Origin: a virus
DNA length: 64,000 nt
IMG/VR virus record: IMGVR_UViG_3300045256_000294
Span: 64,001-128,000 of that record
Strand: one strand, 5' to 3'
Positions 1-54,711 of the stretch are shown here, one piece after another. Numbering within the stretch: the stretch's first letter is position 1; the number at the start of each line of letters is the position of its first letter. A program made the translations under genes and the position numbers. The notes under the pieces are model-generated. The model saw nothing but the letters and a program-made list of their open reading frames with translations. It was not told where the DNA came from and did no database searches.

Positions 1-1024
1 CAATATCGCCTTCAAGCTTCCATTTCCGCCGGACCTTAGCGGAATCATAAGAAACATCGTAACCGAGAGCACGCAGGCCAATTTTACCGACACTACCAGT
101 ATAGCCTTCGCGGCGGTGTGTGCATATCACCCCACGCTTCTTACTCCTAATAACCATCTGTTTCGCCGGGCGAAGCGAGGTGGTGACCCCTAGCCCAACC
201 GCCGCAAAAGCCTGAACCAGGTCCGTCAATAATTGAATTGAGACGGTGAAGAACGATTTACGACTCCGGCAACTATCACCATCAAAATAGCCACGCAGGA
301 GCACCAGCAACTGGCGCTGAGACAGACTAGACCAAAATGCGGGTAACCGCTTCTTGTGCGATCTATTACCCATAAGATCTGAGAAGAGGTATGAGAAGCC
401 AGAAGAACAAACCCTGGTACGTACCCCCCTCCCACTAATAGCAACGTGTCTGATCTGCGGATTAAAACCGAATCCAGAGAAAAATCCTTTGAGACGATTG
501 AAAAGATGTGGCTCGTTCTCATGATGACCGAAAGTGAGACGATACCCGTCCGATGCCCCCTCGGATAGATACATGCCCATGGTCCAAAGCAGATCATCAG
601 ATAATTCCAAATGATCTGGAATTGGATTAATTGTCTTGCCACCGACTGGGAACACCAAACCATTACGAATTGCGAGACGCGACCCTCGCAAATAGTCTGA
701 AGCACGAATTGTTCGCAAATCATCACTTGGCAAAATGATGCGGCTCACGGCGATCTCAGCATTTGGGTCAAGTTGCTGGATTTCTCTAAACCCAACTACC
801 CCATCGGCGTTGTGCCTAGATAAAAGTTTGTGATTACCAGTACACTGAATGGCCTTACTACCAAGATATCCATAAATGGCCTCACCGTCCCGAACCCGGC
901 GTTTCCCGACTTGTATGACTTGCCGGAGCCGACCGCGATGAGTCCACACTAAATCACCAGGTCTCAATTCACAAAGTTTCTTAGATCCGGCGGCAGTCTG
1001 AACCGGCACTTCCGAATTCCAACA
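1..1024 (-). mobile_element. Intein 2 in DnaE (partial, runs off the window)
   Basis: Starts CWNSEVPVQTAAGSKKL directly after LVLAND. Contains LAGLIDADG-like blocks WTMGMYLSEG and LRGYFDGDS. Confidence 0.88.
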
Positions 1025-3064
1025 ATCGTTCGCTAGAACCAGTGGGATCTTGTAGTTGTCGGCGAGCATAACCAGAGTGCGGAACACCCAAGCGTCGTCC
1101 TCTACGCCCGGCATTTGCAATTCCATGTAGTAGTCATCGCCAAAGACCGCCTTGAACTTCTTGACCCAGGTGACCGCCTCGTCCAACCGGGTCTTACGAT
1201 CACGTTCTAGGATCAAGTTACCATCCCGGTCCCGAAGTTCCTTATATCGCAATTCATGACATACCGGCCCGTTGAGGCACCCAGACAGGACGATAAGTCC
1301 TTCCTTGAACTCGCACAACTTATCAAACCAAATGCGGTTGAACTGCTTCTGACTGACGCCGAACAGCCCGGTGCCGTAAGCTTGGGTGGTCAATTTGACC
1401 AAATTCTCGAAGCCAGTCTTGTTCTTGCACAGCACCGTAAGGTGGCGGTTACGGATAATACGGGCTGCGAGTTCTGGGTTCTGCCGCCGCCACTCAGGAG
1501 AGCGGACTTTGTGACCACGCCTCTCCAGGTCTTGGCGGACCGGCTCGAAGTCGTTGAAGTAGATCTCACAGTTGTGGACAGCAACTCCTGTGTAATACGA
1601 ATTGTCGCCCTCAACTTCCATGTTGTACACTGTACCTGAGTAACGATCTTTCTCTACTGCATACACCGGGAGATAAATGTACTCATCGTCATAATCATAG
1701 TGAAAATGACCACTCTCACGCCTGCGAATTGTGTATGAGCCCTGGCGACCATCGACCCCGGGCAGTTTAGTCACTGCGGAGTGTTGCGGAACGTCTAGCT
1801 TCGTCATTAGCAACCTGGCTTGCCAGACGAGGGTCCTACTAGACAGTTTCAGGTAACTGCTTCGTTCACCACATTTGACATCCCCATCGTACAGACCATT
1901 AAGCAGTGCCTTGGTCTGTTCACGATTCAGACGATGTAACCACACATCTGGGATCTTCTTTTCGCTGAAACCGGAACCGAACAGGTGCACGAACAATCGG
2001 CCGAAGAAATCGGAATAGACCTGGACATCCATGACCTGCTGTCGCCGCGATTCACCGTCCCCGTCCCGCATACTAAATGATGTCTTGATGTCAAACTGAG
2101 CGAAATAAGCCGCGATTCGCTCATAGAAATGATATTCATCAGCGGCGAGAGAAAAGTGCGGACCACCATTGGGTGCCGATCCTGCGGCAAGCCAAAGACC
2201 CATAATCCACAGCAGCTCATCGTCCATGTCTAGGAACATAGGAAGGTTGACATCGACAGTGGTCCGGTAGCCCTCTTTGGTGTAAGTCGCCGATACGATC
2301 TGGGCACGCCCCGAGTCGATTAGCGGTTCCACAGACATATCTGACGGGAAGATTTTATCGACAAGATCGATATCTGTATATTCACCGACAGGGAGACGAG
2401 GCACACACAGATAAAATCTATGCCGCCGTTTGTTAGAACGATCCTGACTCCGATTGCTAGCATATGTTCGGCAATACTTCTCCCTGAATAATTCATCAGC
2501 ACGCCGAAACCCACAAGTAATAATATCTTCCCATACACCTTTCTTGACTTCGGCCCTGGTTACCTCACGGACCAGAAGCGGGTGCTCAGGCGTACAAACC
2601 TGATCTTCTACACCCCATGCCTTAATCCGTATAATGTCGCCATTGTACTGTCGAGTCTGCAGGTTCAGAACGCGACAAACACGGGCCCTATGGGTGAGCA
2701 CCATATCGTCCGGCTGGACATCTACGAAAGGCTTCACACCACTCGTGGTATAGATTGGTTGCAATGGTAAGAAACAGCCGGGGATGTACTTGACCTTCGC
2801 TTTCTTGAAGGCGAGGTACATGTCTGGGACACTGGCCATGTGCCCGTGTTCGGTCGCACTCATGGCGGGATAGCCACGCTTCTTACACTGCTCGGCGTAC
2901 TGCTCCGGGGTGGCCACTCCATCCAAGGTAGAGAAGACGGTGTGGTTGTGGAGGTGGACGAAGGTGCTGGAGCCGGTGTAGTCTTCCGGCTTATACTTCT
3001 CCTCAACCACCTTCGGCGTTGGGGCCGGTTGTTGGGGAGCGAGTTGTGGGTTAACCTCGACCAT
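1..3064 (-). CDS. dnaE: DNA polymerase III alpha subunit, N-terminal PHP region with two inteins; 3' end lies outside the window
   Basis: Hand translation from ATG 3064: MVEVNPQL...FVHLHNHTVFSTLDG...MSATEHGHM...KYIPG|CEIY...RHLTVLCKNKTGFENLVKL...GLIVLSGCLNG...YYMELQ...PLVLAND. These are the canonical DnaE PHP motifs. The frame is open to the window edge, so the ORF track omits it. Confidence 0.95.
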   Translation of the reverse strand, partial: MVEVNPQLAPQQPAPTPKVVEEKYKPEDYTGSSTFVHLHNHTVFSTLDGVATPEQYAEQCKKRGYPAMSATEHGHMASVPDMYLAFKKAKVKYIPGCFLPLQPIYTTSGVKPFVDVQPDDMVLTHRARVCRVLNLQTRQYNGDIIRIKAWGVEDQVCTPEHPLLVREVTRAEVKKGVWEDIITCGFRRADELFREKYCRTYASNRSQDRSNKRRHRFYLCVPRLPVGEYTDIDLVDKIFPSDMSVEPLIDSGRAQIVSATYTKEGYRTTVDVNLPMFLDMDDELLWIMGLWLAAGSAPNGGPHFSLAADEYHFYERIAAYFAQFDIKTSFSMRDGDGESRRQQVMDVQVYSDFFGRLFVHLFGSGFSEKKIPDVWLHRLNREQTKALLNGLYDGDVKCGERSSYLKLSSRTLVWQARLLMTKLDVPQHSAVTKLPGVDGRQGSYTIRRRESGHFHYDYDDEYIYLPVYAVEKDRYSGTVYNMEVEGDNSYYTGVAVHNCEIYFNDFEPVRQDLERRGHKVRSPEWRRQNPELAARIIRNRHLTVLCKNKTGFENLVKLTTQAYGTGLFGVSQKQFNRIWFDKLCEFKEGLIVLSGCLNGPVCHELRYKELRDRDGNLILERDRKTRLDEAVTWVKKFKAVFGDDYYMELQMPGVEDDAWVFRTLVMLADNYKIPLVLANDCWNSEVPVQTAAGSKKLCELRPGDLVWTHRGRLRQVIQVGKRRVRDGEAIYGYLGSKAIQCTGNHKLLSRHNADGVVGFREIQQLDPNAEIAVSRIILPSDDLRTIRASDYLRGSRLAIRNGLVFPVGGKTINPIPDHLELSDDLLWTMGMYLSEGASDGYRLTFGHHENEPHLFNRLKGFFSGFGFNPQIRHVAISGRGVRTRVCSSGFSYLFSDLMGNRSHKKRLPAFWSSLSQRQLLVLLRGYFDGDSCRSRKSFFTVSIQLLTDLVQAFAAVGLGVTTSLRPAKQMVIRSKKRGVICTHRREGYTGSVGKIGLRALGYDVSYDSAKVRRKWKLEGDI
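1571..2776 (-). mobile_element. Intein 1 in DnaE (402 aa, LAGLIDADG homing endonuclease type)
   Basis: Starts CFLPLQPIYT and ends VYNMEVEGDNSYYTGVAVHN, followed by Cys (CEIY). Removing it restores the PHP motif IPGCEIY. Confidence 0.93.
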
Positions 3065-3761
3065 TGAGAATTTCTAGTCGCTGTTGGACATGTTCTGGTA
3101 CGCCCCGGTAGGCGGCGATCCCTCTATCCAGCACCACAGCCAATACAGCCTTGCACAATTCCGCGTCCAGATCATCGGTCTGAGGGAGCACAGGTTCCTG
3201 TGGTTCGCGGCCTAGCCGCTTGATGAACCTTTCGAACACGACGACAAGGCCCGGTCGATGTTTGGTAGCGAATTTCCACAGACGACACAGGTAGTTGTGA
3301 AAGCCATCATCGCCCAATTTAGCCCGAAGCTCATCGAACTTCTCGCGGACTTTAGCCGCCCAGACCGTCTCCAACTTCACAGGGTCTAGAGCTTCTATCC
3401 AGTAGTGCCGCCCATACTCACCCATCCGCTCCATCACCGCTTGCTTAGTAACCATGGCGGTGCGGAGTGCTACCGCCCTGAGATCGCCTGCTGAATAAGA
3501 CTTGGACAGACCAAGCTTAAATGCCGCTACAATATCCTTGAAGGACTGCAGGCTATAGCGTTGATGTGTCTTAGCCTGGAACCATGAATCCAGATTTGGT
3601 ATGAGTTGGGGCTTGAGGTCGCTGTCGAGGATACGAGGCACCGGCTCTAACTGCATGAACCAGAGGTCGAAATCGATGTTAAAGGCTACAAAGTTCCCCT
3701 CAACAGAATGCAACACTAGTTCCACCATGGTACTCTTATCAGGCAGAAGCCGTAGGACCAA
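3051..3761 (-). CDS. hypothetical protein
   Basis: 236-aa ORF whose stop overlaps the dnaE start region. Confidence 0.7.
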   Translation of the reverse strand: MVLRLLPDKSTMVELVLHSVEGNFVAFNIDFDLWFMQLEPVPRILDSDLKPQLIPNLDSWFQAKTHQRYSLQSFKDIVAAFKLGLSKSYSAGDLRAVALRTAMVTKQAVMERMGEYGRHYWIEALDPVKLETVWAAKVREKFDELRAKLGDDGFHNYLCRLWKFATKHRPGLVVVFERFIKRLGREPQEPVLPQTDDLDAELCKAVLAVVLDRGIAAYRGVPEHVQQRLEILNGRG

Positions 3762-4065
3762 GGCTCTGAGCGGCTAGGGGTTCATGGGTATATCTGGCAG
3801 TCCCGAAGACGAGCACGAAGCGGTAGGGAGCCTTTTTGGAATCCGGAGCCAGGGCTACATGGACATGATCGAGAGTCCAAGATTCATCTCCATACACCAC
3901 CATCACCTGTGGATGGTGGCCGCAGGAATCGAAAGGGTCAAGATCGGCGACCGCTTCCATGCTGCTCCAGACCGCCTTACCAGGGACAGGTCTCATTACC
4001 CCGTCAATCTCCTGCTCGGCGACGGTCAACGACGGCCGGACCACCTCATTTGCTATAACGTGCAC
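3739..4065 (-). CDS. hypothetical protein
   Basis: 108-aa ORF packed in the minus-strand gene run. Confidence 0.55.
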   Translation of the reverse strand: MHVIANEVVRPSLTVAEQEIDGVMRPVPGKAVWSSMEAVADLDPFDSCGHHPQVMVVYGDESWTLDHVHVALAPDSKKAPYRFVLVFGTARYTHEPLAAQSLGPTASA

Positions 4066-4069
4066 GTTC

Positions 4070-4477
4070 CTACTCCAGGAGTTTCTTGCCGTAGCGGGTA
4101 ACGATACCCTTCGTCTTATTTAGTGTCTTGGGGTCAAGAACCGTCGGAGTGATCATTAACGGAACATAGGGGTAGTAGAAATAGCCACCATCGAAGAAAC
4201 TGCTACCTTTATAGCCCACCGCGTCGAGCTTCTTACAGATGGCGAAACGGTCTTTGAAATAACAAACCCATTCATTTTTACCGATCTCGGCGAGGACGAT
4301 AAAGAAGTCCAAAACGTCCGGATCTTCAATATAGTCATCAACGGTGACGATCGGGTGCCTAAATAGTGTGTTCTCTTCTTCTGGGGCAGCCCGTTCTGAG
4401 ACGTAGCGGAAGATCGCATGAGGTTCTTCAACCTCATACGGCTCACTATAATCGATGACTTGATACTCGTATTGCAT
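4070..4477 (-). CDS. small protein ending in a gp23 major-capsid C-terminal-like segment
   Basis: C-terminus VGYKGSSFFDGGYFYYPYVPLMITPTVLDPKTLNKTKGIVTRYGKKLL matches the T4-like gp23 C-terminal pattern GYKG...G.FY.PYVPL...DP..F.P..G..TRYG. Confidence 0.8.
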   Translation of the reverse strand: MQYEYQVIDYSEPYEVEEPHAIFRYVSERAAPEEENTLFRHPIVTVDDYIEDPDVLDFFIVLAEIGKNEWVCYFKDRFAICKKLDAVGYKGSSFFDGGYFYYPYVPLMITPTVLDPKTLNKTKGIVTRYGKKLLE

Positions 4478-5001
4478 CAGAGTTGGGGATAGCGTTTCTT
4501 AACCAGTGGCATCGCGAACTTCCCGAACTTACGCATCACCGGCACGGCAACCACGAACTGCTCTCGGAAAAAGCAGATCCACTGGTTATCTTCGGTCCTC
4601 TTAAGTAGGACAAAAAAGTCACTAACATTAGGATCTTCAATATAGCCATCAACAAGGATCTCCTTACCGTGAGCCCTAGTCTTGATGACCCGATGAATAG
4701 CATGCGGTTCTTCGACCTCGCAATCCAGAATGCGGTATGATGATGGCGAACATCGACGACAACGGGAACATCCACTTCTCCGACGGCTTCATCGTCCCTG
4801 TCGATAAGATCCCGCGGAGCGACAACCGGATATACTGATGGTTCCCCCATTCGGCAAAATAGTCGAAGCATTTCGACAGACGTGGTACGAGATCTTGGGG
4901 CCAGCCCAGCCCGTCGGAAGATACGACGGCAGATCTGATACAGCGAGGGCCAGACTCTTGGTCCGGCCCCTGAAAAGACGCTTGATGAATTCTGGGATCA
5001 T
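4477..5001 (-). pseudogene. paralog of 4070-4477, interrupted by an in-frame TGA at 4789-4791 (or compensating frameshifts)
   Basis: Hand translation of about 4740 to 4477: SYRILDCEVEEPHAIHRVIKTRAHGKEILVDGYIEDPNVSDFFVLLKRTEDNQWICFFREQFVVAVPVMRKFGKFAMPLVKKRYPQL*. Its TGA overlaps the next ATG (TGATG). Same frame as ORF 4789-5001. Confidence 0.65.
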
Positions 5002-6086
5002 TAGAACATCTCAGCGGCCTTGAGCAACCCGTCAGCAACACAGTAGAGAGGCTGGTTCGACCGCTTGACCTCCCCCACACTGAACGGCAGGTCCGTCTCT
5101 TCGAGCTTCTTGATGACCCGTTGAGCGAAACCGCGGGGCGATGAGGTACCACCGGCCATGAAAATGTTCACGCCCTCTTCGATACGAGCCTCCGCCTCGT
5201 GTTCCTGGAACCCGGTGACGATCCCCTCAATCACCTTGCTGATGAGCACGTCGTAGTGCAGAACGATGTCCATACCCAGACGATCTTCCGGCTCCTTACC
5301 GGGGGTCAGATCAACCTCCATCTTGCGGCGGGAGACGGTTGTGGGCGTCTCCTTAGCCACCTTCTTGCGAGTCTTAGACAGTTCAGGATCATAACCGTGC
5401 CGCATAGCGACCTGAGTGTCAATCCAGTCGCCGGCCCCGACCCAACAGAAGGAGTAAACCTCCATGCCGTACTTGACGTAAGAGACGGTGACAGTACCAG
5501 CACCCCAAGAAATCCCGATACCAGTAGCGTCCTGACTCATATCCAGGACGATGGCATGCGATTCCTTGATGTTGTTGACTGTCTTCTTGGCCTTCGTCTC
5601 GTAGTTCTCAAGGATCATATTGACCACCCGCTGGTGGTAGTCAATGTTAGAGTCCTTGTTGATAGCCGGGGCGGTGGTGCAGTAACAGATCTTCACTTCC
5701 TCATCAAACTTGCCGAGATCATTCTCGGCCATATTGATGAGTCCGTGAATAATCGAGGATAGGACGGTCATCGCCTCCTCGTCTGGGCTGATACCGCCCT
5801 CGGCCATAGGCCGCAGGAGGGTGTCATTCTTGGCGTAGGCGAACTCCTCGGCGTCCCGGCCCAGGACGATGATACGGTTGTTCTCCAACTTGATCCAACG
5901 GGCTGGGCGTTCGGTGCCGTCGGACCGCTTCTTCTTGGGGTCGTTGAGCATGTTCTCCACAAACGGCGTAGCCCGCTCGAACGGCCAGTAACCGTTGATC
6001 TCGGAGATGAACCTGCTCTTGCCATCGTCACCCTTGAACGAGACGACGATGGTCTTGGTGCCGACGTCGAGGCCGAGATGTTTCAT
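5001..6086 (-). CDS. actin-like ATPase (MreB/ParM/FtsA superfamily)
   Basis: Likely start MKHLGLDVGTKT (phosphate-1 motif), then GISWGAGTV (phosphate-2), MAGGTSSPRGF (adenosine motif) and C-terminal VADGLLKAA. Confidence 0.85.
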   Translation of the reverse strand: MKHLGLDVGTKTIVVSFKGDDGKSRFISEINGYWPFERATPFVENMLNDPKKKRSDGTERPARWIKLENNRIIVLGRDAEEFAYAKNDTLLRPMAEGGISPDEEAMTVLSSIIHGLINMAENDLGKFDEEVKICYCTTAPAINKDSNIDYHQRVVNMILENYETKAKKTVNNIKESHAIVLDMSQDATGIGISWGAGTVTVSYVKYGMEVYSFCWVGAGDWIDTQVAMRHGYDPELSKTRKKVAKETPTTVSRRKMEVDLTPGKEPEDRLGMDIVLHYDVLISKVIEGIVTGFQEHEAEARIEEGVNIFMAGGTSSPRGFAQRVIKKLEETDLPFSVGEVKRSNQPLYCVADGLLKAAEMF

Positions 6087-6222
6087 GATGACTCTGATCC
6101 CTGTGTAGTCGTCGCCTAGCCTATATACCGTTGGGTGGTGCTCCTCCGCCGAAGAAGGGACGTCTGACAACCTTTCTAATCCCTGGGGCTGGGGGTCTAG
6201 GTGTGAGACGCCACTTTGGTCA

Positions 6223-6627
6223 TCAGACCTTACCGGGCGAGCAGGTTGAGGGTACGGTATCACCCTTTTCGTCGTCACCACCTTCTGGATCACTTGGTGG
6301 CTCTGGTTGTTTGTTTCCGTTACCTGGACCACCGAATCCGGCAGGCTTCGGGGCTCGCTTGAGAATGAGTTCCGGTGAGACGTCCGGGACACTGCTGGCT
6401 GTAGGGCGACGGATCTCTTGAGCCGCTTGGCTGACTTGGCCAGATGTGCCCTGAGTTGGGCTAGATGGCCAAAAGACGGGGGCGGGCTCCTTTCGTTGGC
6501 CATATAACTCTACCCATCTCTCTAATATCAACACCACTCTGTATCCTAAGTACAGCCAACCAAGACCCAGAACCCCCAGCAGGATGTGCCATAGCGGGTC
6601 GATCGTCAGCAGGATGGTGGAGGTCAT
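6223..6627 (-). CDS. N-terminally membrane-anchored, Pro-rich small protein
   Basis: Hydrophobic stretch LWHILLGVLGLGWLYLGYRVVLIL followed by a low-complexity tail. Its start overlaps the stop of the upstream gene. Confidence 0.6.
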   Translation of the reverse strand: MTSTILLTIDPLWHILLGVLGLGWLYLGYRVVLILERWVELYGQRKEPAPVFWPSSPTQGTSGQVSQAAQEIRRPTASSVPDVSPELILKRAPKPAGFGGPGNGNKQPEPPSDPEGGDDEKGDTVPSTCSPGKV

Positions 6628-19541: not shown

Positions 19542-22439
19542 ATGTTCAATCTGGAAGCCATCGACGACCACTTCCCGAAGCGTGTGGATGGCCAAGCCTC
19601 CTATCGCGAGGGCCAAAAGAAGGCTATCGAGTTCGCCCTCAATGCCTTCAACAGCGGCAAGCGGGTCGTACTAATTGAGGGGCCGACCGGCTCCGGCAAG
19701 AGCGCCATCGGCATGACCCTGGCCGACATGGTGCCGCGGTCCTACTACTTGACCGGTAGCAAAATCCTGCAAGACCAGTTGGTCGGAGAATTCGGCGATC
19801 AGATCGTCGAACTCAAGGGCCGCAATGCCTACCCCTGCACCTTCTACCCCCGGTTCGGGCCGGAGATGGTCCGCCGCGGCATCTGGAAGCAGCAACAACT
19901 CGATACGCATCTCAAGAAGAACCACAACTGTGCAGACGGCTTCTGCAAGTCCAAGAGCGGCAGGCAGGGCAAGAAGCAGCAGTGCCTCAAGTGTTTCACT
20001 CCTGGTGGGCCGCACGGCACCGGTCGGCCCAGCGGCGACCTAGAAGTGCTACCCCTGGGAATGCGATACAGTGCCTGCCCGTACTACGAGCAGGTGTACA
20101 AGGCCCTCGCTGGCCGCAAAGTGACGATGAACTTCTCGTCGTTCCTGTTCCAGACGCAGATGACCAAGCGGTTCGACGAGCCTCGCGACCTGATGATCGT
20201 GGACGAGTGCTTCCACCCCCACACCCGAATCCAGACGGAGGCCGGTCTGATTCCCATCGGGAAGCTAGTCAACGAGCAGATGGTAATACGTGTGGTAAGC
20301 TTCAACTTCATGACCAAGGAAATTGAGTATAAGCCAATTGCCCGCTGGCTCCGTCGCGGCAAGCAACAGACTTATAAAGTATTAGTCGGCAATCGAACGA
20401 TGTATCCGACCGCCGACCACAAGATCTTTACGCCCTATGGCAAGAAGAAGCTCATCGACTTGAAAGTAGGCGATAAGGTATATGTCCGTCAGACAGAAAT
20501 CACCCCGGACCAACAGCAACTGGTATTGGGGTCGTTGCTAGGGGACGCGAGCCTGCAAGTGGTCGAGTCCAAGAAAATTGGGAAGAAGTATATCAACAAG
20601 GCCACCAGGGGGCGGGTGCGGTTCCGTCACGGTCCTAAGCAGTTTAATTACCTCATGTGGAAGCATAAAATTCTTGGTCCGCATGCCGGGACCGCTCCGA
20701 GTCTTAAGCCATCCGCCGGCTATACCAAGACGACAGCTTCGTTTAGCACTAGTTGTGATTTCTATGATGTCATCGAACCCACCATCATCAATGGCAAGAA
20801 ATCACCGAACCCGGTATGGCTGAGCAAAGTGGGAGCAATGGGTTTAGCAGTCTGGTACATGGATAATGGTGGAATCAGTAACCAAAGTGCCAGATTCAAC
20901 ACCCATGGTTTCGACCTCGCTGCGAACAATCTACTGGCCGGATGGCTACGTTCTACGTGGGGTTTAGAGTGCGAAGTAAAGCCAACCGTCAAGAACGATC
21001 AGACTCTCTACTACATCCAACTTGGGCGGGAGAGTACCAGGTTGTTGATGCGACTGATCTCTCGTTATATTCCGCCTTGTATGCGGCACAAGTTGATAAA
21101 GTACGTGCCGCACGAACCACAGACTGGCTATGCTTTGCGTAACCCACACCGTAAGTTAGACCTAGAACGCAGTAATACGCCTCTTCTAGATTTGCAGGTC
21201 GCAGTTCAAGAGACTGATTGGGAGGGTTACGATTCAACCGTCGAAACTCAAGTCTGCCGCGAAGTGTCTGAGAGCGTGATCCGATCGATTGAACCATACA
21301 AGGAAACCGTTACCTATGATTTGGAAGTAGAGGATAATCACAACTACTTCGCCGGCAATACACTAGTATCCAACTGTCACAACATCGAGTCGCAGCTGAT
21401 GGACTTCGTGTCCCTCTCCATCAGTGACGCCCACCTGCAGCAGCACGGAATTGTCCTGCCGAAATTGGAGACGCCGGAGGAGTATGCGGTGTTCTTCGAG
21501 GACTCGAAGCTACACGAGGCCCTGCTTAAGGTCTATAACGACGCCAACGAGCAGGACCAGATATGGCTGGCTGACGAAATCTCGCGGACGCTCAAAAAGT
21601 ACAAGATGTTCCTAGACCACATCCAGACCGAAGGGTCGGTGTGGGTGAGCGAGTACGAGTCGTCGCAGAGCGGCCACAACAAGGTGACCCTCAAGCCGGT
21701 CTACGTGCACAACATGGCCAGCGAGCTACTGTTCCAGTATGCCCATCGGGTGGTGTTGATGTCGGCCACCATCCTGGACGTGGACGTGATATGCAAGAGC
21801 CTAGGTATCCCGCGAGAAGAAGTGGCGGCGGTTCGGCTCAAGAACCGTTTCCCGGTCAAGAACCGTCCCATCCACATCCGGCCGGTTGCCAAGATGACCG
21901 GCGGAGCCGAGGGGATGAAGAAATGGGGTCCGGCTCTCGTCGAAGGCGTCAACCAAGTCGCCGACGAGTACCCGGATAAGCGTGGTATCATTCATACCCA
22001 CAACTTCTCTATCGCCAAGCTGCTGCGAGAGAACTGTGACCCCGGGGTGAAGCGGCGGTTCCTGTTCCAGGATGAGTTCAACAACGACAAGAAGGCGATG
22101 CTAGCCGCCCACGCCAAAAGCCCGGACTCGATCTTGGTGGCTCCGGCCATGCACGAGGGGATCGACCTGCATGGCGACCTGTCGCGGTTCCAGGTGATCT
22201 GCAAGGTCCCGTACGCCAACTTCTATGACAACCCACAGTTGGCGATGCGGGTAGAGGCCGACTGGAAATACTACATCTGGATCACAGCCCTCAAGCTCGT
22301 TCAAAGCTATGGTAGGAGTGTTAGGTCGGACACCGACTACGCCGACACTTATATTCTAGATGAATCTATCAATAAATTCATTCGGGACGCTAAGAACATG
22401 CTCCCGGATTGGTTTCTTGAAGCCATTAAGTATGAGTAA
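19542..22439 (+). CDS. DinG/XPD-family superfamily 2 helicase with an intein
   Basis: GPTGSGKS, ELKGRNAYPC, Cys cluster, VDE|CHN, MSATI, EGIDL, KVPY and QSYGRSVRS. Confidence 0.92.
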   Translation: MFNLEAIDDHFPKRVDGQASYREGQKKAIEFALNAFNSGKRVVLIEGPTGSGKSAIGMTLADMVPRSYYLTGSKILQDQLVGEFGDQIVELKGRNAYPCTFYPRFGPEMVRRGIWKQQQLDTHLKKNHNCADGFCKSKSGRQGKKQQCLKCFTPGGPHGTGRPSGDLEVLPLGMRYSACPYYEQVYKALAGRKVTMNFSSFLFQTQMTKRFDEPRDLMIVDECFHPHTRIQTEAGLIPIGKLVNEQMVIRVVSFNFMTKEIEYKPIARWLRRGKQQTYKVLVGNRTMYPTADHKIFTPYGKKKLIDLKVGDKVYVRQTEITPDQQQLVLGSLLGDASLQVVESKKIGKKYINKATRGRVRFRHGPKQFNYLMWKHKILGPHAGTAPSLKPSAGYTKTTASFSTSCDFYDVIEPTIINGKKSPNPVWLSKVGAMGLAVWYMDNGGISNQSARFNTHGFDLAANNLLAGWLRSTWGLECEVKPTVKNDQTLYYIQLGRESTRLLMRLISRYIPPCMRHKLIKYVPHEPQTGYALRNPHRKLDLERSNTPLLDLQVAVQETDWEGYDSTVETQVCREVSESVIRSIEPYKETVTYDLEVEDNHNYFAGNTLVSNCHNIESQLMDFVSLSISDAHLQQHGIVLPKLETPEEYAVFFEDSKLHEALLKVYNDANEQDQIWLADEISRTLKKYKMFLDHIQTEGSVWVSEYESSQSGHNKVTLKPVYVHNMASELLFQYAHRVVLMSATILDVDVICKSLGIPREEVAAVRLKNRFPVKNRPIHIRPVAKMTGGAEGMKKWGPALVEGVNQVADEYPDKRGIIHTHNFSIAKLLRENCDPGVKRRFLFQDEFNNDKKAMLAAHAKSPDSILVAPAMHEGIDLHGDLSRFQVICKVPYANFYDNPQLAMRVEADWKYYIWITALKLVQSYGRSVRSDTDYADTYILDESINKFIRDAKNMLPDWFLEAIKYE
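20208..21374 (+). mobile_element. intein (389 aa) in the helicase Walker B DECH motif
   Basis: CFHPHTRIQT...LGSLLGDAS...LAVWYMDNG...TYDLEVEDNHNYFAGNTLVSN|C. The penultimate residue is Ser rather than His. Confidence 0.93.
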
Positions 22440-23973
22440 GCGAATCAAATTCAATTGTGCACGCTGTAAAGCTGAAACATCAAAAACAGCTTCGAATTTC
22501 TACAAACAAAAGAAACGTATCGGTCAGTCACTATGTGCGACTTGCGCCAAACAGGTGGGGGTTAATAAAACCAGAGCCATAGCCGCGTTAAGACATCCGG
22601 TAACCAATGAAAGCCGGGTGACCGTCACATGCAGCTGTGGAGCAACGCGGGAAGTTTCATTTCGTCAGAGCAAGACAGCGAGCAAGTGCTTGTCATGTGC
22701 TAGCAAATCACGATATGCCTCTCATAGATCGACATATCTTCAAAATGCTGCTGAACGTTCCGGTGATCCAACATTTTCCGCAGTTGTATCGCGTGGGATG
22801 GCCACTATCCCGCCAGAAGCGAAGAGCCGAAATGGTGCAATAGCATCGGCTGCTCTGTGGAATGATCCAGGTCGCCGTGCGGCTGAATCTATGAGACGAC
22901 AGACAATAGCCTGGCGGGATAGATTGAGTCAGTCACTTAGGGGTGTTAATACACTAACCACTGACGAATTTGTGGCTAGAGCGGTTAAGGTGCATGGTGG
23001 TAAATATGATTATTCACTAACGAATTATACACACAGCAAGTCATCGATTATTATTATTTGCCCAACACATGGGCAATTTATTCAATGCGCTGCCGATCAT
23101 TTGTATCACGAGAATGGTTGTCCTAATTGCTATTCGCCAATATCCAGGCCACATAGTCAGATTAACGATTACTTGGAGTCACTTGGCCACTTCGTAAGTG
23201 TTAATGATCGTTCTCACGGGTTTGAGATTGATTCATTGGTAGGGAATTTTGGAATTGAGTATCATGGATTGTACTGGCATTCATATTCACGTTTAGAAGA
23301 CAAGAAAAGTCGTTATCGACACCATGATAAGGCAACCGTAGCAGCCGCCAAACACATTAGACTTTATCAAATTTTCGAACATGAATGGCGCGATCGACGT
23401 CCGATAGTCGAGTCAATGATTGCGAATGCTCTGGGTCATACTATACCAATACACGCTAGAGAATGTGTTGCAGTTGAATTAGATGATTCATCCGAATTCT
23501 TTGAATATAATCATTTACAGGGGTATCGTCCCGCTTTGTTTAGCTTTGGCTTATATCATGGCAACGAATTGATGATGGCCATTTCAGTATCGCGACATCA
23601 TCAATTCGAATTCGAATTGATTAGAGCGGCGACGATCAGAGGCTACCGAATTAGAGGTGGACTTAGTAAACTTCTGACCTTTTGTCAACGCAGAACTGGA
23701 ATGCGGTCATTGATGACTTATGCCGACAGACGTTTTTCAACAGGGAATTCGTATTTGCAATGCGGTTTCAAAATGCTATCTATAACTAAACCAAATTATT
23801 GGTATACGAAGAATGGTTTGGTTTTCAGCCGTCAGCAATTCCAAAAATCGAAACTTAGTTCTATTCTGGCAGCGTATGACGATAGTAGTTCAGAATCAGT
23901 GAATATGTTTAATAACGGTTATCGCCGATTTTGGGATGCAGGGCATTGTAAATTAGTTAAAACTTGGCCTTAA
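22432..23973 (+). mobile_element. free-standing homing-endonuclease-like gene (zinc fingers, DUF723-like repeat, PD-(D/E)XK-like domain)
   Basis: CxxC repeats, TTDEFVARAVKVHGGKYDYS, CPTHG, EIDSL..GIEYHGLYWHS, TYADRRFS and YRRFWDAG. Visibly more AT-rich than its flanks. Confidence 0.8.
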
Positions 23974-25153: not shown

Positions 25154-26134
25154 TCAGCGGAGGACTCCGCCGTAAATGGTGTTGACTGTATCCAGGGGAG
25201 GGGGTAGTGGCGGTGCCTTGTATTGGAGTTTCTGGGCCTCTATGGTGTTGTGCAGGAGCATCGTCACCGTCATTGGACCAACCCCACCCGGAACCGGGCT
25301 GTAAGCGGCAACGATGTCGTAGACGTCACGCCGCACGTCGCCTACGATCTTACCGTCTACCCGGTTGATGCCGACGTCCACCAAGACGGTCTTGGTGTTC
25401 ACCATGTTGGGGGTGATAAAATCGGGCTTGCCAACTGCTACCACGATGATATCGGCGGACTGGCATACGTCCTGTAGTCGTTGCGGTGGTGTCCGGTCGT
25501 GGCAGATGGTGACCGTGGCGTTGGCTTCCTCTTTGTCCTGGATCAACAGAGCCTTAAGCGGCTTGCCAACCACGTCAGAGCGGTTGATGATGACGACCTT
25601 CTTCCCCTCGATCTCGACGCCCGATCGTGTCAGAAGTTCTTGTATCCCGTGTGGCGTGCAGGGGATGAATCGGGGGCGGCCCTGGAGCAGCAGGCCAGTA
25701 TTGACTGGGTTGAAGACGTCTACGTCTTTAAGAGGGTCGATGCGGTCGAAGATCTCGAAGTTGGTGATATTCAGTTCCTTTGGTAGTGGTAACTGCACTA
25801 AGATACCATGAACATTGGGGTCCAAGTTGAGGTAGTCGATAGTCCGGATCAGGTGTTCCCGCGGGTCCGACCAGTTCTGGATGCCGTTCTCGAAAGGGCG
25901 GAGTACGAAGCTGTTGATCCCCACTTCGGCACAGGCTTCGATTTTCTTCTTGACATAAACCTTGCTGGCCGGGTCGTCTGAGCATAGGACTACGGCTAGG
26001 GTTGGTGGTACCGATGGTGGCTTGGGCTTGTTGTGATTGTAAGGCGTCCAGGCCGACTTCCTCGCCGAGAGCATCACCTTCATTTCGTGGCGGATTTCAG
26101 CCGAGATGTGGTTGCCATTCAGGATCTGGGCCAT
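25154..26134 (-). CDS. folD: bifunctional methylenetetrahydrofolate dehydrogenase/cyclohydrolase
   Basis: ASKVYVKKK, HGILVQLPLP, KDVD, PCTPHG, RSDVVGKP, DVGINR and PVPGGVGPMTV. Confidence 0.97.
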   Translation of the reverse strand: MAQILNGNHISAEIRHEMKVMLSARKSAWTPYNHNKPKPPSVPPTLAVVLCSDDPASKVYVKKKIEACAEVGINSFVLRPFENGIQNWSDPREHLIRTIDYLNLDPNVHGILVQLPLPKELNITNFEIFDRIDPLKDVDVFNPVNTGLLLQGRPRFIPCTPHGIQELLTRSGVEIEGKKVVIINRSDVVGKPLKALLIQDKEEANATVTICHDRTPPQRLQDVCQSADIIVVAVGKPDFITPNMVNTKTVLVDVGINRVDGKIVGDVRRDVYDIVAAYSPVPGGVGPMTVTMLLHNTIEAQKLQYKAPPLPPPLDTVNTIYGGVLR

Positions 26135-36504: not shown

Positions 36505-36780
36505 ATGACCACGTCCGACCCGCGTTTGCGGAAAGTCAGGACTCCTTTGGCCAGCCCGGAGGCCCGCAAGTTACTTAAAGACCACAAGGAAGCTATCGTC
36601 ATCACCGTCAATCCGGACATGAAGGGTGACGGCGAAGTTAACTTGGCGGTCTACACCAAGCTGGCCAACGAGGGGGGCGTGTTAGCCACCTACCTCGAAC
36701 AGGTTTTGAAGAACCTGATGCGGACACGAAATGACAAACAAGCACATCGTACGGGCAAAGCCGCCCCAACTGGTGCGTAA
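36505..36780 (+). CDS. hypothetical protein
   Basis: 91-aa ORF after AGGT, downstream of a GTATTAAA motif. Confidence 0.6.
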   Translation: MTTSDPRLRKVRTPLASPEARKLLKDHKEAIVITVNPDMKGDGEVNLAVYTKLANEGGVLATYLEQVLKNLMRTRNDKQAHRTGKAAPTGA

Positions 36781-38779
36781 GCGGATCCAAGTGGTCTTGC
36801 CGAAGAACGTCTCTGTCGTCATCAAACCCAGCCGAGCCCAGGTTGTCAACCTCAAAGACCTGAGGAAACAGGTCCCACAACCGGCGAAGCCTATACCACA
36901 GCCCAAAGTAGAACCGGCCCAACCACAGAATCTGGCAATGCCGGCGGCCGCGATCGCCCGACAAAAGCTCATCAAGAGTCGGCGATCGCAACAGGGACGT
37001 AAGAAAACCGAAGTCAAGTACGTCAGCCGGGACATCAACCCCGAATCTATCAACCGCATCGCATTGCTACGAAACGCGGGGAGGGGGAAGCTGTTGATAA
37101 TCGTGGGGAACGGCCCATCCATCCTCGAAGCAGACCTGGGCAGGCTCCGCAACAACCCCCGCATCCAGATTCTGACCGTCAACAAGCCCGATGCCCGGCT
37201 CTGGCCCACAGACTTCTGGGCCTTCTTCGACTCATCCCAATTCCGACGCCACGAAGAATTGTGGAACGGCTACAGTGGCCTCATCTTCAACAGCACCGCC
37301 ATCAAACGGCAGAAGTCCACCAGTATGCAGTTCAGGAATAAGGGTGGCAAAGGATGGAGTCGTGACCTACTATCTGGAATCCATATCGGCCGCTCGTCCG
37401 TCTACGCCAGCATGCAAATCGCCAGTTGGATGAACCACGAGCACGTCTACATCTTCGGGTGCCTGCCAGACGGAGAGAAGATTCTAACTGGCAGGGGTAT
37501 GGTCGCCATCGATGCCCTAGGGCCACTCGACCAAGTTTATACTACTCAAGGTTTCAAACAGTTGACAGGATACCAAAGACGCTGGTATGAAGGCACGCTG
37601 GTGTCGCTCACCACCAGGATGAATAATATTCCTCTAAATGTTACAGAAGAACATCCAATACTGGTTGAACGTCAAGGACAAGAGTCATTTGTGCGGGCTG
37701 GGGATATTGGCGTTGGTGATATAGCAATCTATCCGATTGACCAAAGTGTTGAAGAGGATCGACATAGCACAGACTTCTGGTGGTTAGTGGGTGTCTACGC
37801 TGCTCAAGGATATATTAGACCGGTTCGTGACAAGTACAAATACGCAGTGATGTGCTTGGGCCGTCACGAAGCTAGTTTCCAGCAAAAAGTCGCTAAGACT
37901 GCCGCCCTTTGTCTTGGATGCAGGACCACTGGAGACAAGCGCAATCGCTCGACCACCGAGCTTGTCATTAATAACGACTATTTCGGGCGATTCGTTGCCG
38001 AACATGTAGGCCGTGGTTCTACTACTAAATTTCTTAGCCCCACAGTGATGCGGCTTCCCCCCGACAAACAAGCCGCGTTTGTCGCAGGGTATTGTGAGGG
38101 TGATGGTTCTCTGTTCGTAAAAAATAAACTCGGCAAACATGAGTGCACATTCTCTACGGCATCGGAAAGTTTGGCCGAGTGTCTCCAGAAGCTTTTACTC
38201 AGATTCGGAGTTATATCGTCTCTGGTGAAATCTAAGCGCCCATCCGGATTTGATCGCTCCGGTTGTGGTCAATATGGGGTCCGTTATCATGTCCATGTTA
38301 TAGGGGCGGTTCTTGACAGCCTTGCCAGTCGTTGTGGATGGACAGTTACCACGAGCAAGAAAAGACCTTTATTTGATACTGAGATTTTGGATGGGCGGCT
38401 TCGCGTTCGGGTCAGGAGTGTGTCCCACACATCGTACGTTGGTTATGTCAACAACATCGAGGTGAAAGGGCCGCACACCTATAGTTCTCGTCTCCTCATG
38501 ACACACAACTGCGACATGAACCCCGACGGTATCAACGGAAAACTCCACTTCTACGGGCAGAACCCAGACGTCGATCAAGAACAGCGGAAGCAACGGTTCG
38601 CCAAGGAAGCAGTATTCTACGATCAGGCTGCTGACATCATGACCCCGGACGAGCGGCTGAAATTCACCTTCTGCTCGGCTTACAACAAATGGCCATTCGT
38701 CGAGAAGTATGGGCGTCTGGACCATCGCGAAGCAATTGACCACATCTTGAAACATGCTGAGCAGCTAAACAAATCCTGA
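36731..38779 (+). CDS. DUF115/MAF-like (GT42/MptE-like fold) protein with an intein
   Basis: LIIVGNGPSI, LTVN, FWAFFD, SSVYASMQIASWM...YIFG|CDM...HFY. Confidence 0.8.
   Translation: MTNKHIVRAKPPQLVRKRIQVVLPKNVSVVIKPSRAQVVNLKDLRKQVPQPAKPIPQPKVEPAQPQNLAMPAAAIARQKLIKSRRSQQGRKKTEVKYVSRDINPESINRIALLRNAGRGKLLIIVGNGPSILEADLGRLRNNPRIQILTVNKPDARLWPTDFWAFFDSSQFRRHEELWNGYSGLIFNSTAIKRQKSTSMQFRNKGGKGWSRDLLSGIHIGRSSVYASMQIASWMNHEHVYIFGCLPDGEKILTGRGMVAIDALGPLDQVYTTQGFKQLTGYQRRWYEGTLVSLTTRMNNIPLNVTEEHPILVERQGQESFVRAGDIGVGDIAIYPIDQSVEEDRHSTDFWWLVGVYAAQGYIRPVRDKYKYAVMCLGRHEASFQQKVAKTAALCLGCRTTGDKRNRSTTELVINNDYFGRFVAEHVGRGSTTKFLSPTVMRLPPDKQAAFVAGYCEGDGSLFVKNKLGKHECTFSTASESLAECLQKLLLRFGVISSLVKSKRPSGFDRSGCGQYGVRYHVHVIGAVLDSLASRCGWTVTTSKKRPLFDTEILDGRLRVRVRSVSHTSYVGYVNNIEVKGPHTYSSRLLMTHNCDMNPDGINGKLHFYGQNPDVDQEQRKQRFAKEAVFYDQAADIMTPDERLKFTFCSAYNKWPFVEKYGRLDHREAIDHILKHAEQLNKS
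37460..38509 (+). mobile_element. intein (350 aa, LAGLIDADG type)
   Basis: CLPDGEKILT...VTEEHPIL...LVGVYAAQG...FVAGYCEGDG...VNNIEVKGPHTY...MTHN|C. Confidence 0.92.
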
Positions 38780-40687: not shown

Positions 40688-40963
40688 ATGGAGCCAATAG
40701 TCTATCGTGTCATCGAGGCTACACCCAACGATAAGGGCATTTCTCTGCTCCTTAGTCAGGATGGGATCGAAGACCCAGAGGCTGACATCGTATTGGTGTG
40801 GCGGGATGACCAAGACGTCGAATGGGCACACTGGAAAGAACAAGACCACAGAGTCGATGCTCTATCCTGGCGATTCCCGCTAGACTCGTCAGACGACGAA
40901 ACGCACGTGTTGGTCAGTAACAACAAACTCTGGAGCAACAATAATGCAACCGCGGAAATTTAA
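40688..40963 (+). CDS. hypothetical protein
   Basis: 91-aa acidic ORF overlapping the next start. Confidence 0.55.
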   Translation: MEPIVYRVIEATPNDKGISLLLSQDGIEDPEADIVLVWRDDQDVEWAHWKEQDHRVDALSWRFPLDSSDDETHVLVSNNKLWSNNNATAEI

Positions 40964-43900
40964 CATCGTGACGGACGGGGCCTGGGGCTCGTGCGGCAAG
41001 GGCCTCATCACCACCGCCCTCGCCTGGAAGCACCGGCCACAAATCATCAGCACCACCAACATGGCGAATGCCGGACACTGCCAGACGGCTGACACCTACG
41101 TTATTACCGATCGTGGGCTGGAGCGTCTAGGGTCTGTCGTCCTCAATAGGACCGCCTCCCAAACCGTGAACATGGACGGGAACTTTGAGATGGTGTCGCA
41201 TCACCACTATGATGGCGTACGGCACATCAACGAGATCGCCCTTCAAAACGGAGTGAAGCTCCGGTGCACCGATGCCCATCGCTATTACGTCTGGGACATC
41301 CAGAACGCGGCGTTCAGATGGGTGGCCAGTAACAACCTCAACGCCGACCACCACATCTTTCTCTTCCCCAAGGAGGTTGCCTTCCCGAACAACAAACTCC
41401 TACCAGACCGGTGGTCGATGGAGCCTCTTCCCAACCGCACCATCATCACCCTACCGCCGGACTCGACCAAGACGGACGTGCGATTCGCCGAATACTTAGG
41501 GCTGCTGGTGGGTGATGGGTATTACGCCGGTCTGCAGAAGATCTCAATCGCCTTCCACAGCGATCGACTCGACGTGGCTGAGACGGTGGCCGACCTGTAT
41601 CGCGACATGGGTATTACGGCTGTCGAACTGCGGCGAGTACCGGGGAAGAGATACTCTACCCTTACCACCCGCCAGACCTCCGGCTTGAATGAACTGTTCA
41701 AGATCGTGGGCCTTGATAGGGCCACCAAGTCTGCCAAGAGGACGCCATCTGGCGTCCTACGGTCCAACAAGTTGGTCATTGCCGCCTATCTCCGTGGTCT
41801 GTTCGATGCGGACGGCTCGGTTAAGAAGGACCGCGTGCAGCTCACCAATTGCTCACGGGTCGTTGTGGAAGACGCCCAGCAGATGCTCTATGTTCTTGGT
41901 ATCCATTCATGTCTGAGCGTCTATCACTGTGACCGCCCCATCAAATCAGGCGTCCGGCTCCCACAATTCATCCTGTCAGTCTCCGGAAAGGCAGACCTGA
42001 TGGCCTTTCACCGCACGGTCGGTTTCCTGTCACGGGTCAAGACGGAGCGTCTCCTGGGACTTGTCGGCCAGACTGAGGAGCAAGGTCTAGTCCTACCCCT
42101 GTCACTGCAGCTGCGGCAAAAACTGCGACAATCTGGGCTGGCGGGCCGAACCAACACCCGCACCGCTTCGGTGGTGGAAAAACTCGCTAACAGCACCGAT
42201 CCGGAAATTGTGCGTCTCGTTGATCTGTGCCGAGACTATCACCCCGTACGCATCAAGTCGATCCGCTTACACTGCGATCAAGCTGAGGTGTTCGACATTA
42301 CCGTTCCCGGTACTCACAGCTATTTGGCCAACGGGTGTGTGTCGCACAACACCGCCGTCTTCACCGACGGCCGGACGTTCGTGGCTAAGGCCCTCCCCTC
42401 CGCCACCATCCTCACCAAGTGGCTCACCGACTACCAGCCGCAGATCGTCGTCGGCCCCACCGCCGCCTTCGACCTCGACCAGATGATGAAAGAGATCCAT
42501 GAGTGCGGGGTTAACCACTCCCTGACCATCCACCCGCGGGCCGGCGTCATCACCGAAGCCCACAAGCTGGCCGAGAGCGGCAACGGCGAAGGCTCAACCA
42601 AGCACATCGCCTCCACGATGCAGGGCTGCGGCGCCTTCCTAGCCGACAAGATCCTCCGCAAGAAGGGACTCCGGCTCGCCCGCGATTACCCCGAACTGAA
42701 CAGCTTTATGGCGGACTACCTGCCGCGGAAGCTAACCATGCTGGGAGCCGAGGCCGCTGCCCTCGAAGGACTCAGCCTGCCGGAGATGCTCTACCGGCTA
42801 ATGACCCGGCACGGCTACACCATTCTGCACGAAGGGAGCCAGGGCTTCTCCCTCGACATCAATCACGGCTCCCACTACCCCCAATGTCACCACATCGATA
42901 CTCTGGTTCGCGTCCGTACCGGCGATGGTGTTGTGGAAACGATCCGGTTGCAAAATGTGGATGTCTCCAGACACACCGAGATCGAGGACATCGGTGGATG
43001 GGTGCGTTTGCACAAATCGTGGGAGAATCTCGACCCGGAGCCGATGCTTGCCATCGTCGCCGGACAGAATTTGCTTATGGTGACCGCCGGGCACCCGACC
43101 ATCATTGAGCGTGATGGGGTACGGGTGGAGATTAGGGCCGACGCGGTTCGCCCCGGTGATCGCGTCTATACACCCACCCCCAACCGTCCTGTCGCTAACA
43201 AAGCCCTTGGACGCTCGCTTGCGTACGCGGTTGGCTATTTTCTGGGTGACGGATGGATCAGCGGAGAAATGCGGCCGGCGGCTCACCGTCCTACAGCCGG
43301 CCAGAAGAAAACCACAGAACTCGCCCGCTACCGAGCACGCAAACAAGACATGGTCGTCGAAACGCCGACACACCGGATGGCAGCAGCCCGCAAGACTCAG
43401 ATGTTGGGTGTGATCTTCTCGTCGCAGGATTTTTACCGCCTACCTGGGCATCTTGACCGTCTCAGTCTGACGCATCACATGCGGGCGACCAAGAGCAAAG
43501 CGTTCCGGCTCAACGTCTGGTCATCCGATTTCGCACGTCAACTGGACTCGATGGGCATCAAATCCGAACTCGCCCCTAACAAACGGTTGATGCCCGACTA
43601 TCTGGACTACGACGACGTGACCTTAGCGATGATCTTGGCCGGTTATATTGACTCTGACGGGACCGTGACCAAGACCGGCCGCGTCGTCTTCGAGGTTACG
43701 TCGTTGTGCCTGTGCCAGCAGTGGCAGCGCTGGTTGCATTCGTTGGGCATTAAGTGCTCGATCCGTCCCCGAAAGAAGTATGGAACACACTATAGCACAC
43801 ACACCACGACCGACCACTGGTTGATGTCGATCGTTTTCCACAAGAACCAGACCGAACACCCGGTATACCAGACTCTGCTTGCCGAATCCGCCAAGGCCGC

Positions 43901-47962: not shown

Positions 47963-47995
47963 CCCAAAACTAAAGTGGACTTCTTAGGGGTGCAT

Positions 47996-54177: not shown

Positions 54178-54711
54178 ATGTCTGCTTGTAAGTACGGGGG
54201 CTGTTCTATCTGCTGATCGACGCACTTGCGATGAGTGCAAAACCGCAAGGCATTAAAACGTAGGAGCTATGCCCGACGCTCCGAGAAAATCCGTGAACAC
54301 AATCGCACCTACGAACGAGAAGACGGCCACCTATCGGCACAATCTCCGAACGTACTTTTGCTACGTCATCCAGAATGTCAAGGCGAAAAGAGACAAACAC
54401 CGCAATCCGAATCGATCGACGAAAGAGTTTGCTGTCGATATCATTTTGTGGTCGATTTGTGGCATCAACAACGTGGACGGTGTGCGATTACTGGAATGGA
54501 AATGCTCCATCGGCCGGACGATTTATGCAGTGCTAGCATTGACAGACGGGACAACTCGCGGGGCTATTTTCCGGACAACGTACATCTTGTGTGTCGGTGG
54601 GTTAATCTAGCTCGCGGTAAATTCACGTTAGACGAATTCACAAAGGTCTTGGATGGACTACGCCATCAATTCACCACTCGACCCGAACAAACCGTTCTGT
54701 CTCTATGCTAA
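54178..54711 (+). pseudogene. frameshifted His-Me finger homing endonuclease
   Basis: C-terminal GRCAITG...ASIDRRDNSRGYFPDNVHLVCRWVNLAR. The upstream protein-like segment (RTYFCYVIQNVKAKR...KEFAVD) is in another frame. Confidence 0.65.

Follow-up and report, generated by a model that had tools for sequence, protein, structure and literature searches.

What are two small adjacent genes, each ending in a different piece of a major capsid protein, doing among the non-structural genes of a large phage? The genes lie on the minus strand of a 64,000-nucleotide stretch of viral DNA (the window: bases 64001-128000 of the 136,952-base IMG/VR virus record IMGVR_UViG_3300045256_000294, which is rated 38% complete). 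A first-pass annotation of the window had seen in them a modular cassette displaying capsid epitopes, either as decoys or inhibitors of capsid-sensing defences or as dominant-negative agents against competing phages. Our computational follow-up shows that the two genes belong to a rare family in which a common carrier domain, here called X, is followed by one of two capsid-derived tails, and the function that we put first, tentatively, is mimicry of capsid contacts by those tails. Coordinates are collected in Table 1.

The two frames overlap as TGATG, with the ATG of the downstream gene at 4477-4475 and the TGA of the upstream gene at 4479-4477. Their N-terminal domains of about 80 amino acids (aa) are related, 31 of 76 residues being identical (41%; BLASTP expect value, E, 2e-19), so the coupled frames with a common N-terminal domain were correctly recognized in the annotation. 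An X profile run over the whole 136,952-base record found exactly two places, which are the two cassette genes; the E values of these copies (7.6e-53 and 3.7e-32) are low by construction, as both copies helped to build the profile.

The downstream gene, designated C-type, encodes 135 aa and has one close homologue, P0002, at 85% identity. Its tail matches Pfam Gp23 (PF07068) at E 4.8e-12 and 46.4 bits (cut-off 24.4), with residues 86-130 aligned to positions 304-347 of the 376-position model, and PHROG 138, major head protein, at E 2.8e-10. Residues 74-135 align with residues 471-531 of the capsid protein of the closest complete relative, the 354,091-base genome G001, at 37 of 63 identical positions (59%; E 2e-22). 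The capsid proteins of G001 and of a second relative, G002, are 545 and 539 aa long, and the 38-aa core of the tail is 68% identical to both. In tblastn, the C-type protein matched 616 phage records, the annotated matches listed falling nearly all under capsid genes, and none of the matches covered 80% of the query.

The upstream frame, designated N-type, has no in-frame start codon and terminates in ...FAMPLVKKRYPQL, which the annotation had likened to the start of the Gol region of phage T4 gp23. Over the X domain it is 62% identical to a family protein with an intact N-type gene, P0003, and 66% over the whole aligned length. Its last 16 aa match residues 111-126 of the G001 capsid protein (9/16 identical, 14/16 similar; E 3e-5). 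The ungapped BLOSUM62 score of this tail, 57, was reached by none of 20,000 shuffles (maximum 39) and by none of the 1,761 C-terminal 16-mers of the other window frames (maximum 31). A 74-sequence capsid hidden Markov model (HMM), run over 1,788 window frames, found only these two genes, at E 1.7e-21 for the C-type and at 0.18, marginal if taken alone, for the N-type. These controls together argue that the short N-type match is not due to chance, and the likeness to Gol holds to that extent. Through the G001 capsid protein, the tail aligns to T4 gp23 residues 91-106, a mapping that is approximate because it depends on a weak second alignment domain (i-E 0.069). These residues would be only the first part of the 29-residue Gol region, which we take to be gp23 93-122.

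Neither product is a Gp23 capsid protein in full, which would cover most of the 376-position model: the 135-aa protein contains 44 of these positions, has no HK97 fold and carries the unrelated X, and the N-type has 16-19 capsid residues. The tails are thus homologous to two segments of the family that holds Gp23 and its vertex paralogue gp24; gp24, however, is a full-length capsid paralogue, whereas the X-family proteins present peptide-sized excerpts on a foreign carrier. The whole record contains no other Gp23 match, which presumably places the capsid gene of this phage outside the contig; in G001 the capsid gene lies about 107 kb away from the volactin-like gene, the homologue of which precedes the cassette in the window.

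Does the joining of X to capsid fragments recur in other phages? A three-sequence X profile was compared with 1,835,955,588 representative proteins at a cut-off of E<=1e-3. This gave 14 matches, which we read as 12 members, a broken copy (P0012) and a spurious match (P0011, a 434-aa repeat protein with a trypsin-like end). The independent members had profile E values of 1.4e-20 to 9.1e-4. Two more, P0017 and P0018, came from a word-indexed search that used the family alignment. With P0002 and both window genes included, the family comprises 17 genes: 4 N-type, 8 full C-type, 3 short C-type, the tails of which stop soon after a GY.Y.PYVP motif, and 2 with degenerate tails. On the capsid HMM, full C-type tails occupy positions 396/424-462/473 (n=8), and N-type tails positions 54/57-74, or to 103 in one member (n=4). 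Three of the four N-type tails share their last residue (...YPQL); the fourth, P0016, goes 34 residues further and spans the whole Gol-equivalent region. Thirteen of the 16 family proteins scanned match the capsid HMM at E<=10, eight of them below 1e-12 and five weakly (E 0.0017-0.3), and P0008, P0012 and P0014 have no match at that threshold. Pfam Gp23 matches 8 of 15 aligned members at E<=0.01. The capsid junctions are identical in position although the X domains of members are only 23-52% identical. Judged by these alignments, this is a modular family, with X joined to one of two highly conserved capsid pieces at fixed junctions. The modular cassette proposed in the first-pass annotation is therefore borne out.

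N-type and C-type genes also seem to occur as pairs. They are adjacent in the window, and source contigs of equal size suggest the further pairs P0012/P0002 (95,756 bases), P0018/P0015 (31,545 bases) and P0005/P0007 (5,184 bases), of which P0018 is N-type and P0015 is C-type. In the C-type protein P0017, the first half of X is almost identical to that of the N-type proteins P0003 and P0018 and then diverges, suggesting recombination or gene conversion between the two paralogue types. None of the 14 inner branches of an X-domain tree was well supported.

Other collections yielded no additional members. An IMG/VR protein search returned no member beyond the window's own record, and an IMG/VR motif search matched 29 stretches, none of them members. 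There were none in 50,697 GenBank phage records queried with X alone and with P0003, none in five related phage records, and no further ones in a 'longer' protein search. JGI metagenome contigs gave 118 matching stretches, none confirmed, and GTDB genomes gave one locus that matched query residues 26-48 only and was taken as spurious.

In every one of the 28 pairs that the 8 full C-type members form, the 37-aa core of the tail is better conserved than the folded X (means 63% vs 42%), so the tails are not the random, unconserved debris that the annotation had allowed for. Each tail is nearer to capsid proteins, with a best identity of 53-73%, than to the tails of other members, at 38-58% once the near-identical window/P0002 pair is set aside, which suggests drift from a slowly evolving capsid consensus with the invariant residues kept.

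Which part of the capsid protein has been copied? Via solved T4 structures, the C-type tail (residues 74-135) aligns to about gp23 residues 424-483 and its core to 445-478; the copied segment, about gp23 445-483, takes in a beta-strand of the P domain, the P loop and the strand after it. According to excerpts of PMC9546572, the T4 substitutions T457A, R460C and G461S, which change head length, lie in P loops that meet at quasi-threefold axes between capsomers, and A455V, in the P-domain sheet, removes the requirement for the gp31 co-chaperonin. The same excerpts describe the region around Met98 of gp23 as disordered in the unexpanded head and as an ordered N-arm upon expansion, with Met98 and Met444 of a neighbouring subunit alternating at one site.

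From these positions we rank first, as a tentative reading, peptide mimicry that acts on capsid subunits or their assembly. X would be a soluble carrier and the tail the active part of the protein, taking up the place in which the copied segment would normally bind. Capsid subunits would be the most likely target, at the P-loop contacts around quasi-threefold axes and at the docking site of the N-arm, and the outcome would be capsid assembly that is held back, modulated or poisoned, for example that of a co-infecting related phage. We place this reading first because the segment copied in the C-type tail both makes contacts between capsomers and helps to determine folding, and a peptide that competes for such an interface offers a simple mechanism. 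The cassette lies within a long leftward block of non-structural genes that includes replication genes (the volactin-like gene and PolIII alpha), and its genes follow the volactin-like gene as a chain in which stop and start codons overlap; a translationally coupled cassette in a non-structural operon suggests expression apart from the head genes. Small accessory proteins that alter the capsid assembly of another element are exemplified by P4 Sid, SaPI CpmA/CpmB and PLE TcaP, which are external or internal scaffolds and are not known to derive from capsid protein. The action proposed here would be of the same kind as that of these satellite redirectors, and no link between them and X was found in sequence or in fold.

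Several points weigh against mimicry of capsid contacts. A mimic of the phage's own capsid contacts should poison its own assembly too, and the 68% identity of the tail core to the capsid proteins of relatives could represent either avoidance of self-targeting or simple drift. Part of the conservation of the tails could stem from repeated gene conversion by resident capsid genes. With about 17 genes among 1.84 billion representatives the family is very rare, and the idea that the module sits beside capsid genes was dropped, as no X domain was present in 80 capsid-gene loci. In this lineage the module looks relaxed: two close relatives have lost the N-type gene through different kinds of damage, as described below, and the C-type gene is open but shortened at its end by a nonsense codon. 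In a 95-99% identical strain, represented by low-depth contigs, the C-type gene differs by 7 non-synonymous and 5 synonymous changes and a 6-bp in-frame insertion.

The tails might instead act on host immunity, a reading that we consider rather unlikely. As decoys or inhibitors, they would show the best-conserved epitopes of the capsid to Lit-like (via EF-Tu), CapRel-like or other capsid sensors, occupying these without activating them. Small acidic accessory genes outside the structural module are typical of counter-defence, and the tails are conserved and predicted to be disordered, like binding peptides. The N-type tail also appears to be the equivalent of Gol, the activator of the e14 Lit protease; it aligns to gp23 91-106 by the weak domain noted above, and the tail of P0016 spans the whole equivalent region. 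Excerpts of PMC3014915 describe Gol as the most conserved part of gp23, as a binder of domains II and III of EF-Tu that leads Lit to cleave EF-Tu, and as a short peptide from the capsid protein with activity of its own. Several defence systems respond to major capsid proteins, according to excerpts of PMC13728456. Against this, a peptide that resembles the trigger would be expected to switch a sensor on and not to block it, as Gol itself activates Lit (excerpts of PMC3014915), and we rank the decoy second. In addition, Gol belongs to the capsid gene whereas the N-type tail belongs to a separate gene, and Gol triggers a defence whereas a separate gene should benefit the phage. No sensor is known for the C-type segment, and this phage no longer has a working Gol-type gene, nor apparently does a close relative. 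PADLOC, a library of defence and not of counter-defence genes, gave no match for five window frames and two family proteins.

A phage protein that counteracts a sensor of structural proteins, as a decoy would, is known in DSAD1, which acts against DSR2 (PMC11087589). The literature searched, largely outside subscription journals, held no description of a carrier-plus-capsid-fragment protein or of a capsid-derived decoy, and hence no precedent for a decoy derived from its trigger. DSAD1 is reportedly not derived from the tail tube protein that is the trigger, and a decoy built out of its own trigger would, to our knowledge, be novel. The most specific form of this idea is that of first natural trigger mimics, in which a two-gene counter-defence module would present the two best-conserved peptides of the capsid protein, the Gol/N-arm segment and the P-loop strand, on an inert acidic carrier and saturate capsid sensors, or Lit-sensitised EF-Tu, thus blinding the sensor before capsid appears; we hold this to be somewhat less probable still. 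Interference with assembly is at least as likely as a decoy because the C-type piece maps to the P-domain strand and P loop that make inter-capsomer contacts (excerpts of PMC9546572), which shifts the weight between the two functions that the annotation had offered.

What is the carrier? With the family alignment, AlphaFold2 predicted a six-strand beta domain in the 135-aa protein, with a predicted local distance difference test (pLDDT) of about 90 over residues 1-84 except for the loop at 31-40, and a pLDDT below 50 over most of residues 87-135. The predicted structure of the intact N-type protein P0003 has the same pattern, residues 1-80 being folded and residues 82-100 of low confidence. 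X is thus predicted to be folded and the tails to be disordered. The window C-type X has a net charge of -12 and an isoelectric point (pI) of 4.3; X is acidic in 16 of 16 members (pI 4.1-5.4) and the tail basic in 12 of 16.

The significant Pfam and PHROG matches all fall on the capsid tail and none on X. NCBIfam had no match for the two X genes, P0003 or the neighbouring open reading frames (ORFs) orf70 and orf236, and a far sub-threshold one only for P0016 (E 0.21). Foldseek against PDB and BFVD found nothing for X at E<=0.001, and the best hits of an exhaustive structural scan (VIA), at Z 4.0, were to unrelated proteins and at chance level by the tool's notes. BLAST extensions into residues 45-85 had suggested that X might be a diverged capsid piece; this was ruled out by hhalign, which gave a probability below 1% against 4 and then against 74 capsid sequences. 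ESM Atlas feature matches of X to capsid clusters scored 0.84, below the tool's bar. An intein or split intein was set aside on a reading of the sequence alone, as X is about 80 aa long, the ORFs begin at X's own Met, and X precedes the capsid piece in the N-type gene. X is, therefore, a previously undescribed domain, without known fold or family among the databases scanned, and because the literature also holds no precedent we rate the X-family as a new kind of protein architecture. Separately, ESM Atlas contains clusters of short Gp23-domain proteins (119 aa, 359 members; 132 aa, 55 members), for which a similarity of 0.84 is a lead only; these could be pieces of capsid genes cut off at contig ends, or additional small proteins that carry a capsid fragment.

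In the VIA scan, X also resembled weakly the beta-barrel domains found in translational GTPases (Z 3.0-3.4). This bears on a further idea, improbable in our judgement, in which the tails are segments seen by a folding or translation factor of the host or the phage, GroEL plus a gp31-like co-chaperonin for the C-type and EF-Tu for the N-type, which would be titrated and so tuned or hijacked. It would agree with the position of T4 A455V, which abolishes the gp31 requirement, within the copied strand (excerpts of PMC9546572) and with the binding of Gol to EF-Tu (excerpts of PMC3014915). The Z values, however, are at chance level by the tool's note and lower than the best overall, the Z 4.0 to unrelated proteins; the copied segments are without support as chaperonin-binding sites, and no co-chaperonin or EF-Tu link was seen in the cassette.

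Are the two X genes still functional in this phage? The annotation was right that the upstream copy is interrupted. The cause is a 196-bp inversion, which has moved the first 26 codons to the plus strand, and not a frameshift. When 4720-4915 is turned back in silico, the result is an unbroken N-type ORF of 106 aa that is TGATG-coupled both to a 33-aa ORF on its upstream side and to the 135-aa gene on its downstream side, from which we conclude that the inversion split the gene. Contigs of another run and sample cross both inversion junctions with 0 differences, so the inversion is not an error of one assembly. In P0012, from a close relative, the un-inverted junction is intact and the frame shifts after ...ILVD. 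With the inversion here, this makes the N-type gene seemingly lost twice.

An inversion that parts exactly the first 26 codons from the rest so cleanly, with the other orientation present in a relative, would suit a programmed switch that turns the N-type gene on and off. We consider such a switch very unlikely, as no flanking inverted repeat longer than 8 nt exists at 4720 or 4915 and no recombinase domain occurs among the window ORFs scanned. The contigs compared have one orientation only, a comparison that cannot reveal minor forms.

The same damage raises the possibility that the module has no present function here and is a decaying remnant, acquired by recombination, with the chimera itself having arisen by illegitimate recombination between an X gene and a capsid gene. 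An inversion with only 7-8 nt of microhomology at its ends, the frameshifted P0012, the nonsense codon in the C-type gene and the 7 to 5 ratio of differences in the strain variant would all fit this account, as would the short or degenerate tails of P0005, P0008, P0009, P0010 and P0014 and an insertion site that varies among relatives. A remnant is nonetheless hard to reconcile with the tail being the best-conserved part across the family in every pair compared, with junctions at the same capsid positions despite the divergence of X, with the common last residue of three of the four N-type tails, and with a C-type gene that is open both in the window and in P0002. We think it improbable, though less so than the titration of a folding or translation factor.

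The setting of the genes is that of an accessory insertion. Genes for an intein-laden PolIII alpha, a helicase, an SMC-like ATPase, NucS, glycosyltransferases and a volactin-like actin homologue point to a very large phage, probably of roughly 355 kb. The sequencing runs that contain all sampled words of the stretch carry the labels hot springs or microbial mat metagenomes, and this DNA may come from them. Six cassette queries against 7 related loci gave 0 matches, and the orf236 homologue follows the volactin-like gene after 3 bases (L005, G001) or about 85 bases (L006, G002) in relatives; the cassette is a lineage-specific accessory insertion without counterpart in them. Among the flanking cassette frames, orf70 had 0 Pfam, PHROG, PADLOC or NCBIfam matches, and orf108 had no significant family match in the same four libraries, the best in NCBIfam being far sub-threshold (E 0.13).

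Table 1. Cassette features in window coordinates, with the evidence for each.
Feature	Position	Strand	Basis
C-type gene, 135 aa: X plus capsid P-domain strand/P-loop piece	4070..4477	-	ORF; Pfam Gp23; homologue P0002
X domain of C-type gene, residues 1-84 (predicted fold)	4226..4477	-	AlphaFold2, charge, hhalign
Capsid-derived tail of C-type gene, residues 74-135	4073..4258	-	Alignment to G001 capsid protein
N-type gene body, EVEEPHAI to stop codon, severed from its start	4477..4719	-	X-profile E 3.7e-32 (copy used in building the profile)
16-aa N-type tail, from capsid N-arm segment, probably Gol-equivalent	4480..4527	-	G001 match, shuffles, capsid HMM
Inverted segment, 196 bp, relative to ancestral arrangement	4720..4915	.	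In-silico re-inversion; un-inverted junction in P0012
First 26 codons of N-type gene, now on opposite strand	4838..4915	+	Match to N-termini of P0017 and P0018; identical to P0012 start
TAG stop (4070-4072) where P0002 has Q; former last codons (...RARYSK, stop) in frame behind it	4046..4072	-	Translation compared with P0002
Accessory cassette of small translationally coupled genes	3762..5000	-	Position between conserved volactin-like gene and orf236 homologue
Start of first cassette ORF, TAATG-coupled to volactin-like gene	4916..5001	-	ORF list and sequence reading
orf70, 70-aa ORF, chimera created by the inversion	4789..5001	-	In-silico re-inversion
orf108, 108-aa ORF, last cassette gene	3739..4065	-	ORF list; no counterpart in related loci
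33-aa ORF; would directly precede N-type gene, TGATG-coupled, if segment un-inverted	4737..4838	+	ORF list, re-inversion; no homologue search made

Several features of the surrounding DNA were recorded in passing. The interval between the volactin-like gene and PolIII alpha (window 3762-5000; loci L005-L010) holds different small genes in each relative and acts as an accessory-gene hot spot. The volactin-like gene itself (5001-6503, minus strand) encodes a 500-aa protein that matches Pfam Volactin, an actin-like ATPase, at E 2e-40 over residues 143-497 and is kept at 56-68% identity in six related large phage contigs. Intein and LAGLIDADG/homing-endonuclease domains occur in four large genes: PolIII alpha PHP (2-3064, minus strand), a helicase (19542-22439, plus strand), an unnamed 682-aa protein (36731-38779, plus strand) and an adenylosuccinate synthetase with apparently two insertions (40944-44582, plus strand). 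The window's single low-GC stretch (0.453 vs 0.51-0.60 elsewhere) contains a 537-aa ORF without a Pfam match (22360-23973, plus strand), which may be a recent acquisition. A 1,912-aa ORF at 47975-53713 (plus strand) has no Pfam match at E<=0.001. The phage also encodes a FolD-type tetrahydrofolate dehydrogenase/cyclohydrolase (25154-26134, minus strand) and a NucS endonuclease (54653-55318, plus strand).

The general importance of the family is limited by its rarity, at about 17 genes, and by the decay of the copies in the window. Its interest lies in what the tails copy: capsid proteins are common triggers of bacterial immunity, and their contact peptides also govern head assembly and size. 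If the tails act by mimicry, these genes would represent natural phage peptide mimicry directed against a competitor's capsid, a regulation of the phage's own assembly, or mimicry aimed at a host sensor, each of them an undescribed mechanism, and the family would mark those capsid segments that are functionally exposed before assembly.

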